DNA of 64,000 nucleotides from sequence record PZ452579.1. One strand, 5' to 3'. This stretch comes from a phage. Position 1 is the stretch's first letter; the number at the start of each line of letters is the position of its first letter. The notes beneath the pieces were generated by a model, which was not told the DNA's origin, did not search any database, and saw nothing but the letters and a program-made list of their open reading frames with translations. Both the position numbers and the translations under genes were made by a program. Of the stretch, positions 13,063 to 24,418 are shown piece after piece.

Positions 13063-13404
13063 TTAAAAGAATTTAAATTTTTTCTTGGTTCGTTCATTAA
13101 AAGCTTGTTGTACTTGCATTGTAACACATTTTTCAACATGTGGTGCAAGTTCTGCTTTTCTGTCCTGGTCAAGAACTGCAAAGTCCATTACGATTTTACC
13201 ATCAACCCAGTCTAGTTTTGTAATATAGACTATATGATGGGAACCGTCTTCAAGTGTAATCAGAATCTCTTGAATGACATTTTCCATTGCTGAACGGATA
13301 ATTTTAAGAGATTCATTAAACACTCGTTCTTTGCGAATGTCTTCCCCTTCCGAAGAAGGGGATTCATCAACGATTTCTAGATTTAAATCATCGAGATTAT
13401 TCAT
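13063..13404 (-). CDS. 40: gp40 head vertex assembly protein (by synteny)
   Basis: ORF between 41 and uvsX; track start is TTG at 13425, first ATG at 13404. Confidence 0.6.
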   Translation of the reverse strand: MNNLDDLNLEIVDESPSSEGEDIRKERVFNESLKIIRSAMENVIQEILITLEDGSHHIVYITKLDWVDGKIVMDFAVLDQDRKAELAPHVEKCVTMQVQQAFNERTKKKFKFF

Positions 13405-14569
13405 CGAAATCTTCCATTTCGTCAAGGTCGTTTTCTATATCTGCTGCAGACGGAGCATCAGAAGTTTTAACCGGAACTTTAGTTGTTGCTTTGCAATTAA
13501 TAAGGTCGTTAACAGCGTCATCAACTTCTTTAATAGAAGAGATAGCACCTAGTTTATATTTAGTTTCAATTGCATCTCGGAAAGGTTTGTGTTTAAACAA
13601 AGGTCCCCAGAATTCTACACAATCAGTAGCTTTAGCACGCCATGATTTTTCTTCACGAATCATTTCACCTGTTTCTTCGTCAAGGAATTCGCGAGCATAC
13701 CAACCGGCTTTAGGCTTAACTACAAAACCAATTTCAGTTGCCATTTCTAACAAGCCACTGAATGGGTCAATACCGCCATCAAAATTAACCGTGATCGGGA
13801 AAGTAGATTTCTCTTTAACTGTGCGAGATTTTTCTGCTTTCAACGTGAAGTCATAACCGGTCAATTCTGTACCTTCTTTAACCTGACGTTTAGAGATAAA
13901 AAATACCGTGTTGGCAGAATAAAGAATACCTGTACCACCGCCCATAATCTCTTTAGGATACAATCCGCCGATTTCCATTGCTGTATGGTTAATTGCAACA
14001 CACGGAATATCTTTAATAGTCAAATACGGGGTCACAATACGGAAAAGAGATTTAAGTGCCTTAGCACGAGACATATCACCTACGACTTTCTCGTTCAATG
14101 CATCTTCGGTTTCTTTCTTAGATGCAGTATTACCAATCGAGTCAATAAAGATAATAACTTTATCACCGCGTTCAATAGCGTCAAGCTGATTAGTCATATC
14201 AACTTTAAGTTGTTCGACAGATTGAATCGGAGTATGAACTACACGGTCTAAATCAACACCCATTGAACGAAAATAAGATTCTGAAGCACCGAATTCTGAG
14301 TCATAAAACAAACAGATTGCATCTTTATATTTCTTCATATACGCTGCAACCATAGTTAGTCCAAACAACGTTTTAAAGTGTTTAGAAGGAGCAGCAAAAA
14401 TAGTTAAGCCTGATTGCAACCCTGCATTCAGAGCACCACCTAGTGCAATATTCAACATCGGAATACGAGTAGGGACTTCATCACGATTATTAAACAGCTT
14501 AGACTTAGTCAAGTCTGCAGTCATTTTAGAAGTAGAAGCTTTAATCAGACGAGATTTTAAATCAGACAT
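13397..14569 (-). CDS. uvsX: UvsX recombinase (RecA-like)
   Basis: 390 aa; MSDLKSRLIKASTSKMTA... and RecA fold motifs; matches T4 UvsX. Confidence 0.95.
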   Translation of the reverse strand: MSDLKSRLIKASTSKMTADLTKSKLFNNRDEVPTRIPMLNIALGGALNAGLQSGLTIFAAPSKHFKTLFGLTMVAAYMKKYKDAICLFYDSEFGASESYFRSMGVDLDRVVHTPIQSVEQLKVDMTNQLDAIERGDKVIIFIDSIGNTASKKETEDALNEKVVGDMSRAKALKSLFRIVTPYLTIKDIPCVAINHTAMEIGGLYPKEIMGGGTGILYSANTVFFISKRQVKEGTELTGYDFTLKAEKSRTVKEKSTFPITVNFDGGIDPFSGLLEMATEIGFVVKPKAGWYAREFLDEETGEMIREEKSWRAKATDCVEFWGPLFKHKPFRDAIETKYKLGAISSIKEVDDAVNDLINCKATTKVPVKTSDAPSAADIENDLDEMEDFDE

Positions 14570-14667
14570 TGTATTTTTCCATAGGCATCATTATATTTTA
14601 CTCATGTTTAAAAGATAAGATGATTATATACTAAGGGTTATACAGCATTTAAAACTTTAAATGGCTC

Positions 14668-15216
14668 TTAACGAGCCCATTTGATGATTTCTGTAATCAA
14701 ATCATTACGTTCGCTTGCATTAAATCCTATAACTTTGTTAGCACCATCATGATTAAGTAATTGATACGTTTGGATTTTGTTATGAATTGCAAACTCTTCA
14801 AAATGTGAAATGACTGTATTAAAACCGAATGAAGACAAAGTAATAAGGTCGTCTTCAAAACTTTCAGTCATTTCGTTACGTGTTAAAATAATTGTGAACA
14901 CATCATGGTTTTGGCAAAGACGAATATAATCCTGTTCATAAACGTCAAGAACCGAGTCCGCATCTTGTCGAATACGTCCATAAACCCAGTTACTAATATA
15001 TCCACGGTCTAACAGATAAATCTTAGTAGGGTCTAAATAATTCAACATCGTTTCGAAACAGCCAACTTCGTTTCGAGACTTAACATCGAAACGTCCATCA
15101 ACTGTTCGTTTAGGGAAATCAATCTTTACATATCTTTCACTAATTTCCATTATGTCATTAATGAAAGTTGTTTTACCAGCATTATCCGGGCCATCTACTA
15201 AAATAATTTTAGCCAT
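14668..15216 (-). CDS. P-loop kinase (dNK/dNMP-kinase or small sugar-kinase-like)
   Basis: 182 aa; Walker A GPDNAGKTT and LLDRGY (DR motif); occupies part of T4 beta-glucosyltransferase slot. Confidence 0.6.
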   Translation of the reverse strand: MAKIILVDGPDNAGKTTFINDIMEISERYVKIDFPKRTVDGRFDVKSRNEVGCFETMLNYLDPTKIYLLDRGYISNWVYGRIRQDADSVLDVYEQDYIRLCQNHDVFTIILTRNEMTESFEDDLITLSSFGFNTVISHFEEFAIHNKIQTYQLLNHDGANKVIGFNASERNDLITEIIKWAR

Positions 15217-15217
15217 T

Positions 15218-16117
15218 TTATTCCTCGATTACGACATCTTCGTATTTAGGTATATTATACGGCGAAGAAATTAAAGCATTAAAGTAGATGAACTCACCAA
15301 GACCTGGATGGAATACTTCTTCAGGATTTTCGAAATATTGAATCTTCGGACGTCCTTTAAGAATTTGATAGTACTCAGTTTTAGTCGGTTTAAAAATTCG
15401 AATCAGCGCTTCTTCAGGATACTTATTTCTGTCGAAGCTATTATTTGGATCGGTTATATAAAGCGGTTGACCTAATTGAATTGCACATTCAACCACTTGT
15501 TCAAAACGATAGCATGGGTCACTAATTCGAAATGGATGAAAAATACCATCTAGATGAATAGGAGCCAAATCACCTACAAGACGCTGCATGATGGAAGGAC
15601 GTATAACTTTCTGGGTTATGATAATCTTATTACCATCGGCACCAGCGTTAACCAGCACTTCCTTTTGACGTTTATTCAACACAGTTGTTTGGATTGAACG
15701 ATTAACCGACAACATGTCGGTTTTTAAGAATTCGTCAATATAAAAACGTGGTTTATTAGGGTCTGCGGTGATATTGAAATTGAATTCTACATCAAAAGCG
15801 CCGTCATATCCAGTGATATCTGTGATTAGAAAATCACAATCATAATAAGCAATTAATGAATCAACCACAAATTCATTTTCAGACCAGAAATATTTACGAG
15901 TGTTATACGCGTTATCTTTATACCATAATGGAACAAACTTAAATTCTGGGAAAAGACGTTCACATTCTTTAATATCAGATGCATTACGTGGATATGTAAT
16001 CACATCACCTGGATTAGCACGGTGCAAATGAAGTTGGAAGTTGCCATCCTTAAGGATAGCATACTGTCCAGTTTCATAAGACCGCATACTCAAGATAGGT
16101 ACGCGGAAAATAGCCAT
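15218..16117 (-). CDS. Hypothetical protein at bgt locus (candidate hmC sugar transferase)
   Basis: 299-aa ORF, tightly coupled to flanking genes; no recognisable motif; function inferred only from position. Confidence 0.5.
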   Translation of the reverse strand: MAIFRVPILSMRSYETGQYAILKDGNFQLHLHRANPGDVITYPRNASDIKECERLFPEFKFVPLWYKDNAYNTRKYFWSENEFVVDSLIAYYDCDFLITDITGYDGAFDVEFNFNITADPNKPRFYIDEFLKTDMLSVNRSIQTTVLNKRQKEVLVNAGADGNKIIITQKVIRPSIMQRLVGDLAPIHLDGIFHPFRISDPCYRFEQVVECAIQLGQPLYITDPNNSFDRNKYPEEALIRIFKPTKTEYYQILKGRPKIQYFENPEEVFHPGLGEFIYFNALISSPYNIPKYEDVVIEE

Positions 16118-16833
16118 TAGTCAAGGAATCCTTTAACATAATCAAAATCACGTTCAAACACATGGGCACTTACCATGGTATGAGTATAATCACCAACTTC
16201 TACACCACATTCGTTAGCGATATAATGAAGTAATTTTCCTTGGAGATAAAAATCCAACTGCATAACAACAGCACAGTTCTGAGAACGCATATGACAGTGG
16301 GTATAAAGCTTACCATCGCGAATATAATAAGTCACTGAGTCAGTACATGGATATTCAAGTGTTTCGTCCGAATCAAGCAAAGCCTGATCAGAACTTTCTA
16401 GAATTTGGAACACAACTCTTCGAGAGTTAGGCTTCTCTTTAAGTTCTTTTAGAAGAGCTGGTAATTGGGCTGCAATGCGAGGACCATAGAAAGTGTTGAA
16501 GTTCGCAGGCAAAGCATCTGATTTTGGTTTAGAAATAAATTTAGCGACATTAGGATATGCCTTAAACGCTTCTTCTGCATCAGTACCACCAGAAATCATA
16601 AATTTCCAGAAGTCTTCGGCATATTCATAAGAGATGCGGTTAATACGTGGGTCGGTCATTTTGAATGATGATGGAGTGTCAACAACTACTGTCATAGACC
16701 CAATTTCATTACAACGTCCAATACGAGAATCAGTTACGAATTCCGGGTTTTCTAAAATTTCACGATTGACTGCTTTAAATGCGGCTTGAAAATCTGCGGC
16801 TTTGATATATTTCATTGTGTTATGTTTTCCCAT
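16117..16833 (-). CDS. 42: Thymidylate-synthase-fold pyrimidine hydroxymethylase (gene 42-like dCMP hydroxymethylase)
   Basis: 238 aa; catalytic Cys in YPCTDS, RSQN...QLDFY segment alignable to T4 gp42 RSND...FRNDYA with Asp retained at the cytosine-specificity position; divergent from T4. Confidence 0.75.
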   Translation of the reverse strand: MGKHNTMKYIKAADFQAAFKAVNREILENPEFVTDSRIGRCNEIGSMTVVVDTPSSFKMTDPRINRISYEYAEDFWKFMISGGTDAEEAFKAYPNVAKFISKPKSDALPANFNTFYGPRIAAQLPALLKELKEKPNSRRVVFQILESSDQALLDSDETLEYPCTDSVTYYIRDGKLYTHCHMRSQNCAVVMQLDFYLQGKLLHYIANECGVEVGDYTHTMVSAHVFERDFDYVKGFLD

Positions 16834-16874
16834 GTTTACCTCAATACAGTTATTATATACTCAATTCATAAAGC

Positions 16875-17114
16875 TTATTTGAATTTCTTGGCAATGTTGA
16901 TATAACGTAAAGCTTCAGCATCGATACTTCCAAGAACACTATGAAGAAATGCATCAGCGTAATATTCTAGTTGAACAGGTTCTTTAATCACTTTAGCCGC
17001 TTTGGTTTCAAACAGGCCCATAAGGGCCTTTTTAAGAATTTGTTCGTTAGTGTTCAGTTTCATAGTCAAAATCTCTTCATTAAGTTGGTGGTTAAAAGTT
17101 TTTCTAGAAATCAT
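16875..17114 (-). CDS. Hypothetical soluble protein (imm position, not Imm-like)
   Basis: 79 aa, no TM segment. Confidence 0.45.
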   Translation of the reverse strand: MISRKTFNHQLNEEILTMKLNTNEQILKKALMGLFETKAAKVIKEPVQLEYYADAFLHSVLGSIDAEALRYINIAKKFK

Positions 17115-18271
17115 TCTGGGTACCTCAAAGCGTCGTCAGAGTTAGTTATATCAATAATAGATATAGAATTTTCTGATAACCCGTTTTTAGATAACTGACG
17201 TTTATAATATCTTTCACAATATGTACACGTCGTCCCGCAGATTTCATTAGCACAATCGAAATCTGGATGTCTGAACCACCTTTTTTCTAAAAAGCCATCT
17301 AACAAAGAGGTTTCAATATTTACTGTATGTGAAAACTCGGTCTCATTTTCAAGAGTGAAAATAGTCTCTAAAGGCTTCCACAGTTCTAACAAATTACCTT
17401 CAAACTTTTCAGAAGCGTATGCTTCAAGAACTTTCAAAATGTAGTCTGTGCTACCTGTACGTCCTGAAACTTTGAATTGAGTGATACCGATATCATTATA
17501 AAGTTTCAAATCTTGAGGACGAACAAAACGAGTTCTCAACCAGTTAAATGGGTCTGTATCACGAGCTTTAATACAGTGCTGCATTGGATATCCGTTTAAG
17601 GATTTAGCATCATCAGCTGTAACATCAGTACTATGGAAAATATAGCAAGAGTCACGATAGCTACAATGTGTTGTATACCCTTTACCAGCATTAGAACAGA
17701 ACTCATTTACAAGAACTTCAAATATTATATTGTTCTTATTGCAAAACTCTGCTGCACGCTTCAGGAAAGAAACTGAACGGTTCTTATGAATTCCGCAACA
17801 GACCTTTTTGATATTATATTGGTCATGCAAGTATTTGATTTGAGTTACAGCATCGACATGTAGAATTGTTGAAACTTCAATCTCAATGTCTTTATTGACT
17901 TCACGAACAATTTCCATAACAACAGGGTTAGCGATAGTAATACGCCATACGCCTATTGACCAAAGATACTGAACATAATCCTGAATAGCTTTCTTCTTCC
18001 ACTCAACTAGTTCTCTTTTTGAACCAGGATTTATCGTGTTGAGCGTATAGTTAAAGCAAATACCTAATTCGTTACAACGTTTAACGTAATCTTCTAACAT
18101 CTTTTTGTCAACGTCAGGAAGCCTAAAATCAGGTCTGGCTGCTACAAAAGCCATTTCTCTTGTAGAGCCGTATACTTCGTTTATCAAGCTATTAGGATAA
18201 GTTTTATTGAGCTCTACGATTTTATCAAGAAGAGCTAAATCAAAATTCGTTCCGATTTTAAAAGTATTCAT
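17111..18271 (-). CDS. Hypothetical Cys-rich protein within sugar cassette (candidate transferase)
   Basis: About 386 aa from MNTFKIG...; C-terminal CANEICGTTCTYC cluster; no confident family. Confidence 0.5.
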   Translation of the reverse strand: MNTFKIGTNFDLALLDKIVELNKTYPNSLINEVYGSTREMAFVAARPDFRLPDVDKKMLEDYVKRCNELGICFNYTLNTINPGSKRELVEWKKKAIQDYVQYLWSIGVWRITIANPVVMEIVREVNKDIEIEVSTILHVDAVTQIKYLHDQYNIKKVCCGIHKNRSVSFLKRAAEFCNKNNIIFEVLVNEFCSNAGKGYTTHCSYRDSCYIFHSTDVTADDAKSLNGYPMQHCIKARDTDPFNWLRTRFVRPQDLKLYNDIGITQFKVSGRTGSTDYILKVLEAYASEKFEGNLLELWKPLETIFTLENETEFSHTVNIETSLLDGFLEKRWFRHPDFDCANEICGTTCTYCERYYKRQLSKNGLSENSISIIDITNSDDALRYPE

Positions 18272-18327
18272 TTTTTTGCATCTCACGTTAATTGATGCGA
18301 TGGTTTTTGCAGGTCTTACTTAAATTA

Positions 18328-18714
18328 TTATAGATTCGGTTTATATGATTTAAATGTTTCGAATTCGCCTTTATTCATAAGAGCTTTGAATTCGTCAGGA
18401 CGCATAGCTTTGTCGTCGATAATCCAATCATATACTGGTTTATGTGTTAGCAAATTATGGTACTTTAAGCCAATGTTTGCCAAGTTCTGGATCAGACTTG
18501 GGAGAATGTCAATTGCTATACGACCAGGACCTACTGACTTCATACCGCGAGCAGTGTAAAGCGTTATGGTATGCCCTGCATCATACAGGGCATTAATGGC
18601 AGACACCATTTCGACGTCTGGTTTGAAGTTCACGTAATCACGATTGTTATTCCACTCTGTTATACAATCATCGACATCAAAACAAAGATTAAGCATGTTT
18701 TCTACACGGTGCAT
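18328..18714 (-). CDS. HAD-superfamily phosphatase (small, C0-type)
   Basis: FDVDDCIT (motif I), YTARG (motif II), KP...IIDDK (motifs III/IV); start ATG shares a base with upstream stop (TAATG). Confidence 0.7.
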   Translation of the reverse strand: MHRVENMLNLCFDVDDCITEWNNNRDYVNFKPDVEMVSAINALYDAGHTITLYTARGMKSVGPGRIAIDILPSLIQNLANIGLKYHNLLTHKPVYDWIIDDKAMRPDEFKALMNKGEFETFKSYKPNL

Positions 18715-20399
18715 TAGATTCGTTCCCATTGATGAGTGATATCGCCACCGATTGGACGATAGGAAACACCAGTTTCTTTATCAGTTAGTACCCATTTACC
18801 AGGATTTTTTGTAATCAGAGTAGCCGTTACAGGTTCTGCTACGTCATAACTAATAGAGCCGTCTTGAAGTACACGGCCCATATTACGTAATTGCTTAGTC
18901 AGAAGTTCCATACCTTTATAATATGCGGCTACCGCTTTAAGTGGATTATTCTTGAAATAACCACCTAATGCAATCCAGATAATTGCCACTGCCAAATGAT
19001 GATACTCGTTAAACGAACTCATCTTTCCATATTTGTAAACTAATGGATTGATGTTAATAGTCACATTACAAGTTGTTTCATCAATAGTAAACTGTCCCCA
19101 GGTCGGATTAGCGTTGAATTCATCATAACCTGAAACAGCATAAAGCACTTTAGCTTCATCGTACAATTTTGGCCCGTAAATCTTGGTTTCGCCAAAATAT
19201 CCACGAGGGTCGATAAACTTGACTTCGCCGTTATCAGTAATCATAGTATTACTGAAGTTCGGGTCACCATGAATAACAGAGTACTGTCCCTGAGAACGGT
19301 TATGATAACGAATAAGGTGTTCTAAAGCTTGTTTCAGCATTGGCTTCAGACGTCCAATCTTAGTGTAGTTCACATGTGTGATTTTACCAAATGAATCAAT
19401 CAATGGTTGAATGCTTTCACAACGATCAATAACTTTCGTATAGAATTCTTTAGTGAAATCACGACGAACAGTTTCAGGACTTACAAAATAAGTGTCTGTG
19501 CTGAATTTCAGTGCATCTAAAATTGCATCAACAATTTGTGGACGAGCAAGACTTGATTTGGATTTAATATATTCAAATGCCGGCTTACCTTTAATGCGTT
19601 CCATTTCAAAGTTATTTTCATTAACAGAAACTAACTGAGGAACTGAATCTGATTTCACTTTAAGATACCATGAAATCTCATCTTTCTGAAGAGCTCGGCC
19701 CTGTTCGGTTAATGCGAATTTAGTTACAGTTTCTTCACCAATTTCAACTGCATTAAAACTACGATTAAGTTCACGAACTTCATGAGCTTTTTCAAGTTTA
19801 GGCATATCACCTAAATCAATTAGATTCATAAGCTCTGATTTATTGAATGCACTGCCGTAAAGGAATTCTACGAAATCACGTCCTTTGCAGTATTCGTGAA
19901 TTTCCTCATCAGTAGAACCCATGTAGAATTCCCAGTCTTTGAACTGATAAATTCCTACAACATTACCACCTGTTGAACCTACGTTAGTGATATTTTCACC
20001 GTCGAAATTATATCGACATTCGTCACCCTTAACATAGATTGCGTTAACATTCCAAGACCATGAACCAAAATCAGGAATAATATCACACCAGTTAACAATT
20101 ACATTATGGCCGTCTAAATCTTTGTGTAATTTAGCAAGAGCATAAGCAGAACCATACGCTTCATCAACTGTACGAATAGTCACATTGAACCCTTCTTGCT
20201 CACAATAAGCTCGAACAGTTTCAGCAAATTTTGAATGAACTACTACAATAATTTCATCTGCGCCAAGGTCAGAATAAATTGTATACAAATTGCTCAGAAT
20301 AGTGTCTTGTTTATAGTTCACAAGAACTTTTGGAATATGGTGAGTAATTGGATATAAACGAGTTGCCAGTCCAGCACCAAGAATAACAGCTTTTTTCAT
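18714..20399 (-). CDS. Bifunctional sugar-1-phosphate nucleotidyltransferase / sugar kinase
   Basis: 561 aa; N-terminal ILGAGLATRL (GxGxR NTase motif), C-terminal IHGDPNFSNTMITDNGEVKFIDPRGYFG (APH/choline-kinase-like catalytic loop). Confidence 0.75.
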   Translation of the reverse strand: MKKAVILGAGLATRLYPITHHIPKVLVNYKQDTILSNLYTIYSDLGADEIIVVVHSKFAETVRAYCEQEGFNVTIRTVDEAYGSAYALAKLHKDLDGHNVIVNWCDIIPDFGSWSWNVNAIYVKGDECRYNFDGENITNVGSTGGNVVGIYQFKDWEFYMGSTDEEIHEYCKGRDFVEFLYGSAFNKSELMNLIDLGDMPKLEKAHEVRELNRSFNAVEIGEETVTKFALTEQGRALQKDEISWYLKVKSDSVPQLVSVNENNFEMERIKGKPAFEYIKSKSSLARPQIVDAILDALKFSTDTYFVSPETVRRDFTKEFYTKVIDRCESIQPLIDSFGKITHVNYTKIGRLKPMLKQALEHLIRYHNRSQGQYSVIHGDPNFSNTMITDNGEVKFIDPRGYFGETKIYGPKLYDEAKVLYAVSGYDEFNANPTWGQFTIDETTCNVTININPLVYKYGKMSSFNEYHHLAVAIIWIALGGYFKNNPLKAVAAYYKGMELLTKQLRNMGRVLQDGSISYDVAEPVTATLITKNPGKWVLTDKETGVSYRPIGGDITHQWERI

Positions 20400-20426
20400 G
20401 TTGAAGTCCTCATTGGTAAGTAGGAG

Positions 20427-20453
20427 TATTGTACACTATTCTAGTTAAAGCAT
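20427..20453 (-). promoter_or_regulatory. Candidate T4 middle promoter (MotA box + -10) upstream of the NTase/kinase gene
   Basis: Minus strand aATGCTTTAa then 11 nt then TACAAT, about 20 nt before RBS GAGGA and ATG at 20399. Confidence 0.4.
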
Positions 20454-20584
20454 TCATACTTTGCTTGTAGTCCAATCATAATCCATCCAATTACAAGTGT
20501 TGGAATCATTACTGGAGCCGTTAAGCTCCAGTAGATAGTCATGACAAGCATCAATAGTAAAAGTCCTATTGTTATTGCTTTCAT
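20441..20584 (-). CDS. 47-aa hydrophobic peptide (single TM)
   Basis: Manual translation MKAITIGLLLLMLVMTIYWSLTAPVMIPTLVIGWIMIGLQAKYECFN; ATG overlaps SIS gene stop (ATGA); below track size cut-off. Confidence 0.35.
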   Translation of the reverse strand: MKAITIGLLLLMLVMTIYWSLTAPVMIPTLVIGWIMIGLQAKYECFN

Positions 20585-21216
20585 TGTTCGCCTCGTAACA
20601 TGGCACCTAGTGCACCGCCTGGATGGAACTTAAGGAAATCATTAGAGGTAAATCCGCGTTCAGACGAAAGGTTGATAGCGAACGTATCGATAAGCGCTAA
20701 CAACAATGTAGTAGACATTGTCGGAGCTAAAGAGTTCTCGTCAACTTCTACCGCGATACCGGTACAGAACGTATAATCAAAAAGAGCTTCGTATTCTTGT
20801 GGAATGTCAGGGTTACAATGTAACAGAATCTGTTTAACCTGAGGACGAATCATACGAAGATGTTTAGCAACACCTATCATTTCTTCAGTCTTACCAGAAC
20901 GACTGATGTGAATCAACACATCATTAGGTGCAATAAATCCTGCGTCACCATGAGAATAATGCCCAGTGTTCAAATACATGCTAGGAATACCTAGTGAAGC
21001 AAAAGTCTCGGAAGCTTTAGTTGCGATATTAGCATTCTTACCAACACCTGTAATAATTACACGACTTTCATAATTACTCAGTCCAGGGCGACGAAGAGTT
21101 TCAAGAATAGCATTATATCGGGCAGGGTTTTGACTAATTACTTTAGCCATAGTGGCAAGAGATGAAGCTTGTTTTACGATTGCGTCAATAGCGATAGTGA
21201 TTGGTGTAGTTTTCAT
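20581..21216 (-). CDS. SIS-domain phosphosugar isomerase (KdsD/GutQ-like arabinose-5-phosphate isomerase, SIS domain only)
   Basis: 211 aa; ITGVGKNANIATK ... HGDAG ... SRSGKTEE pattern matching KdsD SIS domain rather than GmhA. Confidence 0.75.
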   Translation of the reverse strand: MKTTPITIAIDAIVKQASSLATMAKVISQNPARYNAILETLRRPGLSNYESRVIITGVGKNANIATKASETFASLGIPSMYLNTGHYSHGDAGFIAPNDVLIHISRSGKTEEMIGVAKHLRMIRPQVKQILLHCNPDIPQEYEALFDYTFCTGIAVEVDENSLAPTMSTTLLLALIDTFAINLSSERGFTSNDFLKFHPGGALGAMLRGEQ

Positions 21217-21256
21217 ATTTCTCTCATTTAATTAGTTGGCCGTCCTTGGCATTATA

Positions 21257-23968
21257 TCAAAAATCAAACATATCGAACAGAGATGCTTTCTTCTCGTAAT
21301 CGAGTTTCGCTGCTGATGTGAATCCTTCAAGCGGTTTAATAAATGTCTTCTCAAGGAGAACAGTGTAGTCCATCCAATGAAGTACATCATCTTTGATTAA
21401 ATCAGTGATTTCCGTACCAGAAGGCCATGCGATACATTTATCACCGAATGGGTTTCCTTCACGTAAAGGCAGAACATATACTTTTTCACCTTCTACAACT
21501 TGTGGAGCATCAATATTACCTTTGATAGCCCGGTTATATGTCAGAATTCCACGAATATGGAACGGGCATTTAGGTCCTGGATATCCACCTACATCATATT
21601 TAGCAATGTTATTCGCAGAAGATACCGACGCGATGCTAATATAATTCAATTGACGGAATTCTTTTTCAAACTCTTTAAAATATTCTTGTAATGATTCTTC
21701 ACCTTCTTGAAGCATACGACGAATACATTCTTTAAGAGCTTTCTGTACTGCTTTAGGAGTCGAAGATTTCTGAGTCTCTAGACCCATGATTTTGAGTTTA
21801 GGCTCAGCGTATCTGGTTCCTTCCATATCCCACACGTTTAATGCATAACGTTTCTTACCAGTCCAGAATCCACCAATACCTTTAGAACCGAGCGGAGGAC
21901 CAGCGATAGCTTCTCGGTCCATGAACATTAAGTGTTGTTTATTGTTCATGTATTCACACATTTCACGGAAACCTTTATCAATAGCTGGTTCCATACGTTC
22001 ACGTGCAAACTTATCTAAGAAGTCTACCCAATGGTTGGTATCACGGAATTTAGATTCACCAACCTTATCGATAATTTTATCAGCAGATACGTAAATAGAG
22101 TCTGTATCACCATAAAGAACGAAAGCTTCACCTTCTGTACCACAAACTTCATTCAGATATTCATTAACTTTACGTTCAATCCACTGTAAAGCCATTTGAC
22201 CAAATGTTGTGATTGCAGTAGCATTACGCAAATCATAATAACGGAACCAAACGTTGCCAAGTGCACCATAAAGTGAGTTGATAAGCAATTTACGGTTAAT
22301 CTGTGCAGTCATACCTGCAACTTCAGTACGTTGAGCTCTAAACAACATTTCATTAAGAGATTTAGCAGACAACTTTTTAATCTTTTCTTTAATCTCATCA
22401 CTGAAGTCGAAACGATAATCAACATCTAATGGTTCGTCAACAGAAAGATTAGGATTATGTAAGGCCTCTTTAATTATTTCACCATTACGTTGAGCCGCAA
22501 GCATATAACCTTTATGTTCTTTACGTTGATTAAAGACTTTAGTGATTTCAGTTGGAACAACACCGTCACGGTCTTTATAATACATCATGCCGTTAGGAGA
22601 ACAACTGTACACATCAGAAGGACGTTCAGCAACAGCGTTAATATAATCATGTAATGGAGCTACTTTAAACGTTCCTGCTATTGTTTCTGGGCTAATATTC
22701 ACTTGGCGAATGATGCTTGGATACAGAGATGTTAGGTCGAAGCTCATCACATATTTGTATCGATTTGGAATAGGTTCCTTAACAAAAGCACCCGGGTAAG
22801 GTTGAACTGGATGCGAACGACCTTGTGGAATCACCTTGTTTTGTTCTTTAAGGCTATTAAAAATAATAGCGTCCCACGTTTTAATTGGGCTAAACACAGA
22901 TTGAATCTGTATCTTAGCATAATAACCCATGTCCAAGCTCAAGTTAATGAACTGACGCTTAGCATCAATTTGCAATACACGATACACGTCGATAATGTTA
23001 TAAGAAATATATCGTTGGTGATTGCTTTCACGAAGCTTAGAAATAGGGCCATCATATTTCAGTTTACCAACGTTCAATTCAAATTCTGAAATGTAATCCA
23101 GAGAATACGACGGTTGATTGGTAAAAGAGAATTTTTTGTAAAGGTCGATGTAATCAAGAACAGAGATACCGAACAATGTAATGATTTCTCGTGAACCATA
23201 CATGTTTTCAATAACTTTAACACGAGTCTTGCGATGTGGTGACAACCGTTTTGCTGTGGATTCGCCAAAAATATTCTTGATTCGGTTATACACATATGGA
23301 ATATCAAATGACTCAACGTTCCATCCAGTCAAAATGACAGGAGTTTTCTGTTGCCAGAAGTTGAGATATTCCATCAACAATTCTTTTTCGTTATCGAACG
23401 GCATATAAATGATTTTATCGATAATTTCAGATGGAACTTCATCACCGCCTTGTTCTTGAAGCTTAGCAGCGATTTCAATAGACCATTCTTCTACATTACC
23501 ATATGGAGAATTCAATAGATCAAATACGTAGAACCTGTCGTCAATTGAGTCATAATGGGTGATAGCATCAATCGGATGTTTTGCTTGTGACGGCTCAGGG
23601 AACCCGTCCGGAGATGTTACTTCGATGTCGAAGTTAGCCACACGAATTTTTGTATGGTCGTATTTGATTTCATAGTTATAAGTGTCAGACAAATACGCCA
23701 ATTTGAAATCGTCCATGCCAAGTGCTTCAAGTCCGATATCTTCCATGCGTTTAATCCATTGTGAGGCATCACGCATATTAGCGAACAACTTACGAGTACA
23801 CGGCTTACCGTAGATATCGAAATATTTCGTAGCCTGACTTTCTGGACAATGAGCAAACAGTGATGGTTTATATTCTACTTCACGAGTACGTTCACGGCCG
23901 TTAGAATCGATGTAACGTTCAAAAATTGAATCACCGATCTGTTCAACCGTTAAGTAAAATTCTTTCAT
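21257..23968 (-). CDS. 43: DNA polymerase gp43 (family B)
   Basis: 903 aa; exonuclease and polymerase motifs including YGDTDS; T4 gp43 size and position. Confidence 0.95.
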   Translation of the reverse strand: MKEFYLTVEQIGDSIFERYIDSNGRERTREVEYKPSLFAHCPESQATKYFDIYGKPCTRKLFANMRDASQWIKRMEDIGLEALGMDDFKLAYLSDTYNYEIKYDHTKIRVANFDIEVTSPDGFPEPSQAKHPIDAITHYDSIDDRFYVFDLLNSPYGNVEEWSIEIAAKLQEQGGDEVPSEIIDKIIYMPFDNEKELLMEYLNFWQQKTPVILTGWNVESFDIPYVYNRIKNIFGESTAKRLSPHRKTRVKVIENMYGSREIITLFGISVLDYIDLYKKFSFTNQPSYSLDYISEFELNVGKLKYDGPISKLRESNHQRYISYNIIDVYRVLQIDAKRQFINLSLDMGYYAKIQIQSVFSPIKTWDAIIFNSLKEQNKVIPQGRSHPVQPYPGAFVKEPIPNRYKYVMSFDLTSLYPSIIRQVNISPETIAGTFKVAPLHDYINAVAERPSDVYSCSPNGMMYYKDRDGVVPTEITKVFNQRKEHKGYMLAAQRNGEIIKEALHNPNLSVDEPLDVDYRFDFSDEIKEKIKKLSAKSLNEMLFRAQRTEVAGMTAQINRKLLINSLYGALGNVWFRYYDLRNATAITTFGQMALQWIERKVNEYLNEVCGTEGEAFVLYGDTDSIYVSADKIIDKVGESKFRDTNHWVDFLDKFARERMEPAIDKGFREMCEYMNNKQHLMFMDREAIAGPPLGSKGIGGFWTGKKRYALNVWDMEGTRYAEPKLKIMGLETQKSSTPKAVQKALKECIRRMLQEGEESLQEYFKEFEKEFRQLNYISIASVSSANNIAKYDVGGYPGPKCPFHIRGILTYNRAIKGNIDAPQVVEGEKVYVLPLREGNPFGDKCIAWPSGTEITDLIKDDVLHWMDYTVLLEKTFIKPLEGFTSAAKLDYEKKASLFDMFDF

Positions 23969-24023
23969 TTAATTTCCTTTAGACGAGTTATTGTCTTTTG
24001 TTTGTTGATGAACTTATTATACT

Positions 24024-24046
24024 CCAAATGGGACCGAAGTCCCATT
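24024..24046 (-). terminator. C(UUCG)G hairpin between regA and 43
   Basis: AATGGGAC-CGAA-GTCCCATT 8-bp stem; immediately 3' of regA stop. Confidence 0.5.
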
Positions 24047-24049
24047 GCT

Positions 24050-24418
24050 TTAATTACCAATTGTATATTTTGCTTTCAAAGTCCAGTCATCTTTCTGTTT
24101 AAAAGAGATAACTCGGAAGTTATTAGTCAGGCTAAATAGATCTTCACGAGCAGAGTCTTCAATAACAATCAATCCCCAGTCTTCAAGCAACTGGGCAATC
24201 GAATCACGTCGCTGATAGTCTTCACCGTCAATATCAACCTGACGTCCATCCATACGCAACATTTCTTTAAAGTGGACGATATAGTACTTACCTTGCTTTT
24301 GGAGGATATGACAAGACTGGTAAAGGACTTTATCCTTGTTATTAGCGATGCCCATACGGGTCAAAGTCTCTTTGACTTTCAGAAAATCTTCAGGGTTCTT
24401 CAATTTAATTTCAATCAT
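24050..24418 (-). CDS. regA: Translational repressor RegA
   Basis: MIEIKLKNPEDFLKVKETLTRMGIANNKDKVLYQSCHILQK... near-identical to T4 RegA; start at homologous Met. Confidence 0.9.
   Translation of the reverse strand: MIEIKLKNPEDFLKVKETLTRMGIANNKDKVLYQSCHILQKQGKYYIVHFKEMLRMDGRQVDIDGEDYQRRDSIAQLLEDWGLIVIEDSAREDLFSLTNNFRVISFKQKDDWTLKAKYTIGN

Follow-up and report, generated by a model that had tools for sequence, protein, structure and literature searches.

The phage DNA analyzed here (sequence record PZ452579.1; "the window" denotes the whole stretch of 64,000 nucleotides) carries a minus-strand open reading frame at positions 18714 to 20399 that joins two sugar-activating domains in one chain. 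The question raised by this locus is which reactions the two domains catalyze, on which sugar, and in what order. The original prediction described a sugar-1-phosphate nucleotidyltransferase fused to an APH/choline-kinase-like sugar kinase, which together would take a free sugar straight to an NDP-sugar. Our analysis bears out the fusion and points to a different route, wherein the protein (hereafter NT-kinase) is very probably the bifunctional enzyme of the phage's own UDP-D-arabinofuranose pathway, which provides the donor for 5-hydroxycytosine arabinosylation. The present analysis shows both folds, the invariance of their catalytic residues, the surrounding genes, and the orthology with phage RB69; the identity of the kinase substrate as arabinose-5-phosphate, the identity of the nucleotide as UDP, and the order of steps are taken second-hand from PMC13326640.

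A Mosigvirus gene with a known RB69 counterpart

The NT-kinase reading frame runs from ATG to TAA, encodes 561 amino acids plus the stop, and is preceded by a GAGGA Shine–Dalgarno sequence ~7 nt upstream. The source phage is a Mosigvirus, and several Mosigvirus phages encode a 100% identical protein. Comparison with phage AlbertHofmann reveals 21 synonymous and only three nonsynonymous codon differences. Given this identity, the excess of synonymous changes, and the invariance of the motif residues described below, the reading frame and its motifs lie far beyond chance. PHROG 4098 covers the full length of the protein (E 3.7e-295), and the gene is present in 374 phage records from many Straboviridae genera. 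Hence, the view that such a gene is unusual for a T4-like phage is not supported. Annotations of homologs as "GlmU," "phosphoheptose isomerase," "polynucleotide kinase," or "capsule biosynthesis protein" are over-propagated; the matches behind them fall far short of the family cut-offs.

Over its 561 amino acids, the protein shares 99.6% identity with RB69 ORF53_52c (gp52:53). This identity falls in two pieces (ORF052c and ORF053c) because a known sequencing error (a frameshift) splits the gene in the RB69 GenBank record (PMC6024577, section 3.4). Thomas et al. (2018, PMC6024577) put the RB69 gene forward as one for UDP-arabinose, and so the observation of a two-domain protein is correct but already known. 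Positions 18714 to 20399 encode the Mosigvirus ortholog of RB69 ORF53_52c/gp52:53 and, very probably, of AfhE of Escherichia phage HY126. Judged by RB69 orthology and by the neighboring genes, through which AfhE was compared, NT-kinase and AfhE are almost certainly the same protein. The nucleotidyltransferase-plus-kinase architecture of AfhE/RB69 gp52:53 is the same, as are the neighbors (isomerase, AfhF, and 5hodCMP synthase), and we see no difference of substance. No solved AfhE structure was found in the PDB.

Two domains and their conserved residues

The N-terminal sugar-1-phosphate nucleotidyltransferase (NDP-sugar pyrophosphorylase) domain spans residues ~1 to 207 (19779–20399, minus strand), and the C-terminal kinase domain, which has a choline-kinase/APH/fructosamine-kinase (ePK-like) fold, spans residues ~216 to 508 (18876–19754, minus strand). 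In the AF2 model (pLDDT 93.1, pTM 0.89), the two are separated by a linker formed by residues 208 to 215. The original prediction of ~230 and ~300 amino acids thus had two domains right, but their limits shift slightly and a C-terminal tail of residues 509 to 561 (18717–18875, minus strand), ending ATLITKNPGKWVLTDKETGVSYRPIGGDITHQWERI, had gone unnoticed.

The predicted ILGAGLATRL signature of the transferase is present at residues 6 to 15. Its core, GAGLATR (residues 8–14; 20358–20378, minus strand), conforms to the G-x-G-x-R nucleotide-binding signature and is followed by K24 within IPK. In an alignment of 38 family sequences with identities down to 28%, this combination of G-x-G-x-R, lysine, and acidic residues is retained, wherein G10, R14, K24, D106, D195, G197, and D198 are invariant. 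By analogy, the conserved Asp residues would bind metal. The Pfam family PF00483 (NTP_transferase) scores 39.1 bits over residues 3 to 99, above its curated threshold of 21.2 bits, and is also matched by 34 of the 38 family members. Moreover, the fold agrees with solved nucleotidyltransferases over the whole domain, and the best PDB profile match is HddC.

The kinase loop HGDxxxxN, quoted in the original prediction as part of the string IHGDPNFSNTMITDNGEVKFIDPRGYFG, is likewise found (residues 376–403). The loop itself, HGDPNFSN (H-x-D-x4-N; residues 377–384; 19248–19271, minus strand), is followed by IDPRG (residues 396–400), which carries the metal-binding Asp397. The catalytic loop, the downstream Asp, the N-lobe Lys, and the helix-C Glu are all invariant in the alignment, as seen for K227, E241, H377, G378, D379, N384, D397, P398, R399, and G400. 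Profile searches with the C-terminal domain gave a divided answer. NT-kinase itself does not reach any kinase Pfam threshold (Fructosamin_kin scores 17.1 versus 22.4 bits, and EcKL and RIO1 are also sub-threshold), but APH is matched in 19 of 38 homologs (best 6.1e-10), which lends the protein transitive support. A PDB search with the protein and the family profile returned nucleotidyltransferases only, except for a marginal match of the kinase half to RIO2 (E 0.05). Because this sequence search gave no kinase assignment, the assignment is drawn from the AF2 model, fold searches, and the transitive Pfam matches. The model and fold searches agree on a bilobal kinase fold that matches solved members of the APH/choline-kinase type, and the closest structural analogs of the two domains are LicC with LicA and MurU with APH-type kinases. 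The fusion as originally proposed is therefore borne out by Pfam, the AF2 model, and fold searching.

The arabinose cassette and the proposed order of its steps

The isomerase, AfhF-type HAD phosphatase, 5hodCMP synthase, and putative DNA glycosyltransferase of the AfhE cassette are all present in the window. Downstream of NT-kinase lies a HAD-superfamily phosphatase (18328–18729, minus strand; NCBIfam TIGR01689, 4.3e-13), the ortholog of RB69 gp51 and AfhF, which is 100% identical to PDB 9iqw over residues 5 to 133. An ATG at 18714, which is likely the true phosphatase start, overlaps the NT-kinase stop as TAATG, and the phosphatase is translationally coupled to NT-kinase; the 9iqw construct begins MHRVENML. 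On the other side is a SIS-domain arabinose-5-phosphate isomerase of the KpsF/GutQ/KdsD type (20581–21216, minus strand; Pfam SIS 4.1e-10), the ortholog of RB69 gp55, with profile matches to NCBIfam kpsF (5.1e-32) and KdsD (2e-30) and PDB matches to 3etn (6.8e-25) and 2xhz (1.4e-18). Between the isomerase and NT-kinase genes, a small hydrophobic ORF of 47 amino acids (20441–20584, minus strand) has a start that overlaps the isomerase stop (ATGA); both AlbertHofmann and KLB31 have it annotated at the same place, the latter as a transmembrane protein.

Farther along the cassette, a thymidylate-synthase homolog (16117–16833, minus strand; Pfam Thymidylat_synt 2.4e-15; E 4.5e-162 versus PDB 9iqc/9ir2) is the ortholog of RB69 gp48, whose function as 5-hydroxy-dCMP synthase is taken from PMC13326640. 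This protein and the HAD phosphatase are essentially identical to PDB 9iqc/9ir2/9iqu and 9iqw, respectively, which belong to one deposition series and are consistent with the HY126 work. The NDP-arabinose would be used by the ortholog of RB69 gp46:47 (299 amino acids; 15218–16117, minus strand; PHROG 3891), the putative first DNA arabinosyltransferase according to Table 1 of PMC13326640; searches for Pfam and PDB sequence matches to this protein returned none. The same table includes the RB69 gp45 ortholog, a P-loop thymidylate-kinase-like nucleotide kinase (14668–15216, minus strand; PHROG 761 "thymidylate kinase," 1.9e-45). The synteny of the cassette is kept in five other phage lineages, and the order of NT-kinase first and HAD second holds at Acinetobacter, Dhakavirus, Klebsiella, and jumbo-phage loci. 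A promoter and terminator scan of positions 13300 to 24100 yielded fewer sites than shuffled controls.

In the pathway we propose, the SIS isomerase would turn host ribulose-5-phosphate into D-arabinose-5-phosphate, and the APH/choline-kinase-fold domain would use ATP to phosphorylate the anomeric C1 hydroxyl, yielding arabinose-1,5-bisphosphate. The HAD phosphatase would then remove the 5-phosphate, permitting the N-terminal domain to join arabinose-1-phosphate and UTP to form UDP-arabinofuranose and PPi. Finally, the glycosyltransferase encoded at 15218 to 16117 and a second one encoded elsewhere in the genome would move the sugar to 5-hydroxycytosine in DNA. Section 27 of PMC13326640, citing He et al. 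(Nat Chem Biol 2026), states in summary that HY126 AfhE phosphorylates arabinose-5-phosphate and that Araf1,5P is the substrate of the phosphatase AfhF, which acts between the two AfhE reactions; UDP-arabinofuranose is reported there as the AfhE product. D-Arabinose is the sugar reported for the RB69-like phage group (PMC6024577, PMC13326640). With the isomerase and the coupled HAD gene flanking NT-kinase, the single-chain fusions described below, and this report on AfhE, the route is likely de novo from ribulose-5-phosphate via arabinose-1,5-bisphosphate, and the two NT-kinase domains likely catalyze nonconsecutive steps. Of the salvage module first envisaged, an NDP-sugar product and D-arabinose as a candidate sugar are retained, but salvage itself is not.

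The same logic operates in the ADP- and GDP-heptose pathways, where GmhA is followed by the HldE kinase or HddA, then by GmhB, and then by the HldE transferase or HddC. Both schemes use a ketose-phosphate isomerase, an anomeric kinase that forms a bisphosphate, a HAD enzyme that takes off the distal phosphate, and a nucleotidyltransferase, and HldE resembles the phage protein in fusing two nonconsecutive activities. The kinase and transferase domains of HldE have PfkB/ribokinase and cytidylyltransferase folds, respectively, and HddA belongs to the GHMP kinases. Pfam and fold searches found neither the PfkB nor the cytidylyltransferase fold in NT-kinase, which differs further from the heptose enzymes in the APH/choline-kinase fold of its kinase, in its pentofuranose sugar, and in a product destined for DNA modification rather than LPS or capsule. 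LicA and LicC are a choline kinase and a CTP:phosphocholine cytidylyltransferase, and AmgK and MurU are a MurNAc kinase and a MurNAc-1-phosphate uridylyltransferase. In both pairs, the enzymes are separate proteins whose role is salvage or recycling, not de novo synthesis; their substrates are not sugar phosphates, and the kinase product is the direct transferase substrate with no phosphatase step. An N-terminal nucleotidyltransferase followed by a C-terminal anomeric sugar kinase is likewise seen in FKP (the Bacteroides L-fucokinase/GDP-fucose pyrophosphorylase) and Leishmania AFKP80. The latter, a D-arabinose-1-kinase/GDP-D-arabinopyranose pyrophosphorylase, activates D-arabinose, and in both enzymes a GHMP-type kinase acts on the free sugar to give a GDP-pyranose product. 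NT-kinase has no GHMP-family kinase domain; its kinase is APH-type, and PMC13326640 reports arabinose-5-phosphate as the kinase substrate and UDP-arabinofuranose as the product of the homolog AfhE.

A competing order of steps would have the HAD phosphatase strip arabinose-5-phosphate to free D-arabinose (or a pentose be scavenged), after which C1 phosphorylation would feed the N-terminal domain directly, so that the two domains act consecutively as in FKP, AmgK/MurU, and LicA/LicC. The structural analogs closest to the phage domains do serve consecutive kinase-transferase pathways with unphosphorylated substrates, and a gene context of isomerase, phosphatase, kinase, and transferase fits either order. 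Table 1 of PMC13326640 indeed gives this opposite order: its entry for gp51 reads "dephosphorylates Araf5p to Ara," and its entry for the C-terminal domain reads "phosphorylates Ara to Araf1p," whereas section 27 of the same source, drawing on HY126 AfhE/AfhF enzymology, names the phosphorylated substrates given above. Two resemblances also lead to bisphosphate-intermediate pathways, namely that of the transferase domain to HddC and that of the phage DLP3 HAD homolog to the heptose-1,7-bisphosphate phosphatase family (PMC13326640). Furthermore, a dedicated arabinose-5-phosphate isomerase in the adjoining gene argues against free-sugar scavenging, and the basic kinase-domain residues that are invariant besides the ATP lysine (R213, R326, R399, K417, and K488) hint at an anionic substrate. 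We therefore regard the free-sugar route as unlikely.

It is very improbable that this phage uses another sugar, such as the 1-phosphate of a heptose, ribose, or hexosamine, or another carrier, such as CDP, GDP, or dTDP. Specificity is not readable from sequence, GenBank labels of close homologs include "GlmU," "mannose-1-phosphate guanyltransferase," and "capsular polysaccharide," and the variety of contexts across the family makes a single substrate throughout improbable. However, the GlmU-type labels derive from a match to the N-terminal 100 residues only, far under family cut-offs; the adjoining isomerase is of the arabinose-5-phosphate type; and the near-identical protein of RB69 belongs to a phage whose DNA, like that of the Mosigvirus NP, carries arabinosylated cytosine as established by MS and NMR (PMC13326640; PMC13390438). 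It is even harder to credit that the C-terminal domain is a noncatalytic regulatory or scaffolding module and that the transferase alone is active. The sub-threshold Pfam scores and the marginal RIO2 match would be consistent with such a pseudo-kinase, but the fold match is clear, all five canonical ePK-like catalytic positions (Lys227, Glu241, Asp379, Asn384, and Asp397) are invariant across the alignment, and AfhE kinase activity is reported in PMC13326640.

Family breadth, a U32-family neighbor, and implications

Beyond the UDP-D-arabinofuranose pathway proposed for this phage, the NT-kinase family comprises 536 cluster representatives in varied contexts, some with a cupin extension. Giant-virus-like contigs encode HAD-SIS-NT-kinase single chains of ~900 amino acids, which contain all four activities, next to glycosyltransferases and epimerases. 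When a single genome was scanned for each bacterial and archaeal species, only three loci emerged, and at least one of these lies on a mis-binned contig from a T4-like phage. The tail of residues 509 to 561 (pLDDT 75–85) is absent from P0082–P0120 in the alignment, and profile positions 547 to 552 are reached by only ~8 of the best 150 family representatives; within the family, the tail is confined to the T4-like phages. Tentatively, the family may be a general core for converting ribulose-5-phosphate to NDP-D-arabinofuranose beyond phage DNA modification, and the T4-like tail may be a docking element. Such a tail may tether either the isomerase or the coupled phosphatase within a channeling complex, which would explain the fusion of two nonconsecutive activities.

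The same cassette encodes a U32-family protein (17111–18286, minus strand; Pfam Peptidase_U32 7.5e-11), the ortholog of RB69 gp50. Its gene occurs in 222 phage records, each with at least 80% identity, and the protein has ten invariant cysteines. Forty-eight other phage records pair the U32-family gene with one for a chorismate mutase, and Acinetobacter phages lack the U32-family gene. An ORF of 79 amino acids in the window (16875–17114) was considered as a diverged chorismate mutase and rejected: it has no Pfam CM_2 match at E values up to 10, aligns poorly with chorismate mutases (15–21% identity), and has an hhalign probability of 0.2% versus eight phage chorismate mutases. The U32-family protein may be an O2-independent cytosine-5 hydroxylase, a role for which no proposal was found in the literature searched. 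If true, it would be an oxygen-independent source of 5-hydroxycytosine for phages in the anaerobic gut. Of the leads from this analysis, the one on this neighboring gene has the greatest potential value.

The significance of NT-kinase belongs to published work, namely the prediction of 2018 and the chemistry and enzymology of 2025 to 2026. To this we add independent confirmation of both folds and of where the domains begin and end, a revision of the original interpretation as free-sugar salvage, the explicit parallel with heptose pathways, and a view of the size of the family and the variety of its fusions. NT-kinase would supply the activated arabinose with which RB69-like phages cover every cytosine. 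Because cytosine arabinosylation blocks restriction enzymes and alters sensitivity to anti-phage defenses, the enzyme is relevant to phage therapy, as it is to the enzymatic synthesis of UDP-arabinofuranose.

A nucleotidyltransferase–kinase fusion in an RB69-like phage

The NT-kinase, a fusion of a nucleotidyltransferase with a kinase of the APH/choline-kinase fold, is encoded by an open reading frame of 561 amino acids on the minus strand (18714–20399), exactly as in the original prediction, and the sequence GAGGA stands upstream of its ATG start. Both strings quoted in that prediction are present in the protein, with ILGAGLATRL at residues 6 to 15 and the kinase loop, as IHGDPNFSN...FIDPRGYFG, at residues 376 to 403. 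Because the flanks of the window carry T4-type genes (UvsX, DNA polymerase, and clamp loader) and the NT-kinase gene shares 98 to 99% nucleotide identity with more than 150 Mosigvirus genomes, we assign the window to an RB69-like phage. The RB69 counterpart is 99.6% identical at the protein level, several other phages encode a protein that is 100% identical, and the gene differs from that of phage AlbertHofmann by 21 synonymous and 3 non-synonymous codons. By sequence comparison, the gene is under purifying selection.

Thomas et al. (2018; PMC6024577) showed that RB69 ORF053c and ORF052c are one 561-amino acid gene, ORF53_52c, which they expressed; in their proposal, this gene and ORF055c are candidates for the synthesis of UDP-arabinose. 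Mono- and poly-arabinosylated 5-hydroxycytosine (5hoC) has since been described in RB69 DNA, and gp52:53 was modelled as an N-terminal nucleotidyltransferase followed by a C-terminal kinase (Lee et al. 2026; PMC13326640). In the BASEL phage AlbertHofmann, the gene is annotated as a “putative enzyme involved in UDP-arabinose biosynthesis.” Given the identity to the RB69 protein, the earlier papers, and this annotation, the NT-kinase is orthologous to an enzyme whose biochemistry has been published, and the finding was already known.

The assignment of the two domains stands, and the C-terminal domain lies within the kinase fold. Pfam NTP_transferase matches residues 3 to 99 above threshold. For the C-terminal half, the window sequence itself yields only sub-threshold matches to kinase families; Pfam APH is reached independently by 19 of 38 aligned relatives (best 6.1e-10), which extend down to 28% identity. 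An AlphaFold2 model built from this alignment is confident (pLDDT 93.1, pTM 0.89). Residues that are invariant in the alignment include G10, R14, K24, D106, D195, G197, and D198 of the transferase half, as well as K227, E241, H377-G378-D379, N384, and D397 of the kinase half, the latter constituting the full ePK-like kinase catalytic set. Residues 509 to 561 (18717–18875, minus strand; pLDDT 75–85) form a C-terminal tail with the motif TKNPGKWxLxDxETGxxYRP..., which is conserved in T4-like phage members of the family only. Jumbo-phage, giant-virus, and other homologues lack this tail of ~50 amino acids, and among the 150 highest-ranking family representatives only ~8 possess it. It may be a docking or oligomerization element.

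The gene cassette and a probable route to UDP-arabinofuranose

The NT-kinase gene lies in a cassette of closely packed genes, all on the minus strand. In transcription order, these encode a KpsF/KdsD-type arabinose-5-phosphate isomerase (20581–21216; NCBIfam 5e-32; PDB 3etn, 2xhz), a 47-amino acid hydrophobic product (20441–20584), the NT-kinase, a HAD phosphatase (18328–18729; PDB 9iqw), a U32-family protein (17111–18286), a 79-amino acid product (16875–17114), a thymidylate-synthase homologue (16117–16833; PDB 9iqc/9ir2/9iqu, E 4.5e-162), a 299-amino acid putative glycosyltransferase (15218–16117; PMC13326640), and a P-loop nucleotide kinase (14668–15216). The likely start of the phosphatase gene overlaps the NT-kinase stop codon as TAATG. 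From its second ATG, the phosphatase is 100% identical to PDB 9iqw (“Capsule biosynthesis protein”), and the construct of that entry favours the ATG at 18714 as the genuine start. The thymidylate-synthase homologue is likewise identical or near-identical to 9iqc/9ir2/9iqu (“Thymidylate synthase”). The structurally studied phage must therefore be a very close relative, and is presumably HY126.

The best-supported reading of this cassette is a route to UDP-arabinofuranose in the order isomerase, kinase, phosphatase, and transferase. The SIS isomerase would convert ribulose-5-phosphate to D-arabinose-5-phosphate, from which the kinase domain of the NT-kinase, using ATP, would form arabinose-1,5-bisphosphate. 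The HAD phosphatase would then release arabinose-1-phosphate, the transferase domain would use UTP to produce UDP-arabinofuranose, and glycosyltransferases would transfer the sugar so that the DNA carries arabinosyl-5hoC. Of this scheme, the present analysis shows the folds, the catalytic residues, and the linkage of the genes; what the kinase acts on, which nucleotide is used, and how the steps are ordered are taken second-hand from He et al., as cited in PMC13326640. According to that citation, AfhF, the HY126 counterpart of the HAD phosphatase, is Mg2+-dependent and acts on arabinose-1,5-bisphosphate. An order in which the phosphatase acts first and the kinase then phosphorylates the free sugar is still worded in Table 1 of PMC13326640, and we consider it improbable.

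The isomerase-to-transferase order shares its logic with the ADP/GDP-heptose pathway (GmhA, HldE or HddA, GmhB, HldE or HddC), and HddC is the best PDB match of the NT-kinase family profile (5.7e-13). The kinase folds differ, wherein the heptose-pathway enzymes are of the PfkB or GHMP type and the phage NT-kinase is of the APH/choline-kinase type. Strong evidence that the four activities act in one pathway comes from single chains of ~890 to 1010 amino acids with the arrangement HAD-SIS-NTP_transferase-kinase (P0084, P0088, P0089, P0091, P0092, P0097, and P0118; loci L005, L024, and L025), since isomerase, kinase, phosphatase, and transferase are there joined in one protein. The original observation was confirmed and its interpretation partly supported. 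The module is not a salvage device for the direct conversion of a free sugar to an NDP-sugar: its domains would catalyze two steps of a de novo pathway that do not follow one another.

Two small genes of the cassette merit separate mention. The very hydrophobic 47-amino acid product, MKAITIGLLLLMLVMTIYWSLTAPVMIPTLVIGWIMIGLQAKYECFN, is encoded between the isomerase and the NT-kinase, and its start overlaps the isomerase stop codon as ATGA. AlbertHofmann has it in the same position, as does Klebsiella phage KLB31, whose annotation calls it transmembrane. It would thus be a small membrane protein encoded within a cytosolic sugar-nucleotide cassette. The 79-amino acid frame occupies the chorismate mutase slot of related phages, has no Pfam match, and was rejected as a chorismate mutase for want of profile similarity to the phage enzymes (hhalign probability 0.2%). 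It is found only in Mosigvirus, at 84% identity or more, with truncated forms of 47 to 58 amino acids in several genomes, and may be evolving rapidly or undergoing decay.

Distribution of the family

The fusion had been thought unusual for a T4-like phage, a view at odds with its occurrence in 374 phage records (364 full length) that include Mosigvirus, Kanagawavirus, Acinetobacter, Klebsiella, and Dhakavirus phages. Protein identity is ~70% in Kanagawavirus and relatives, ~56% in Acinetobacter phages, 54% in Shewanella Thanatos, ~43% in Klebsiella and Dhakavirus phages, and 28% in Vibrio jumbo phages, and an exhaustive profile search (E up to 1e-30) gave 536 cluster representatives. The NT-kinase gene is followed by the HAD gene in Acinetobacter phage DLP2, Dhakavirus Bp7, two Klebsiella phage genera, and a 350-kb jumbo-phage contig; the contig, whose NT-kinase is only 35% identical, carries SIS, GT2, NT-kinase, HAD, and ThyA-like genes together.

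Several whole-pathway fusion proteins reside on giant-virus-like contigs, and one member derives from a eukaryotic transcriptome. The L005 contig also encodes an HNH-containing MutS, RNA polymerase Rpb2, and Rpb10, and L025 encodes GT2, epimerases, and a second, 805-amino acid NT-HAD-kinase fusion. These settings suggest that the fusion proteins make NDP-arabinose or a related sugar for viral glycans, not DNA. Relatives of ~786 to 790 amino acids (P0106, P0108, P0111, P0112, and P0116) carry an extension after the NT-kinase, which in P0106 weakly matches the cupin-type C-terminal domain of mannose-6-phosphate isomerase, and may represent a variant pathway with another isomerase or another sugar.

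Public annotation of the cassette is widely wrong or empty. GenBank labels for the NT-kinase include “GlmU,” “mannose-1-phosphate guanyltransferase,” “capsular polysaccharide,” “dCMP deaminase,” and hypothetical protein; the phosphatase appears as “polynucleotide kinase” or, as in PHROG 1238, “phosphoheptose isomerase,” and the 5-hydroxy-dCMP (5hodCMP) synthase is mislabelled “dCMP hydroxymethylase.”

The U32-family gene and its possible role in cytosine hydroxylation

The U32 gene (17111–18286, minus strand) was found in 222 phage records. Its amino acid identity is 80% or more in every one of them, including those in which NT-kinase identity has dropped to 43 to 54%, and ten cysteines are invariant across the family. 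Hosts of the phages that carry it are all facultative anaerobes (Enterobacterales and Shewanella), a correlation confounded by phylogeny. The gene is absent from all 57 Acinetobacter phage records carrying the NT-kinase and from Dhakavirus phages of E. coli. More distant relatives (48–58% identity) lie among deoxynucleotide-metabolism genes on megaphage and other metagenomic contigs, where the adjoining genes include dCMP deaminase, dNK, and NT5C. In 48 phage records, among them Serratia phage LC53, the U32 gene is separated from that of the ThyA-like 5hodCMP synthase by an AroQ chorismate mutase gene (Pfam-significant), which encodes the enzyme that makes prephenate and retains the active-site motifs. 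Loci related to the U32 locus of the window are L008 (6004–7406), L009 (5983–7394), L010, L011, L012, and L018–L023. In the window itself, the Mosigvirus-only 79-amino acid frame takes the place of the chorismate mutase.

The U32 protein RlhA is required for 5-hydroxycytidine at C2501 of 23S rRNA, whose formation depends on Fe-S clusters and prephenate (PMC5727448). TrhP carries out prephenate-dependent 5-hydroxyuridine formation beside the O2-dependent TrhO (PMC6599085), and for UbiU/V prephenate is the oxygen donor (PMC10990095). The phage ThyA-like hydroxylase uses O2, and gp50, the RB69 orthologue of the U32 protein, is listed only as a “sugar or heterocycle reductase,” with U32, RlhA, and TrhP unmentioned (PMC13326640). 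None of the papers searched here links the phage U32 gene to 5hoC. Through guilt by association only, we tentatively propose, at just under even likelihood, that the U32 protein hydroxylates cytosine at C5 in a prephenate-dependent reaction that needs no O2, and so serves growth in anoxic hosts. Under this hypothesis, the chorismate mutase would boost the prephenate supply for the U32 route.
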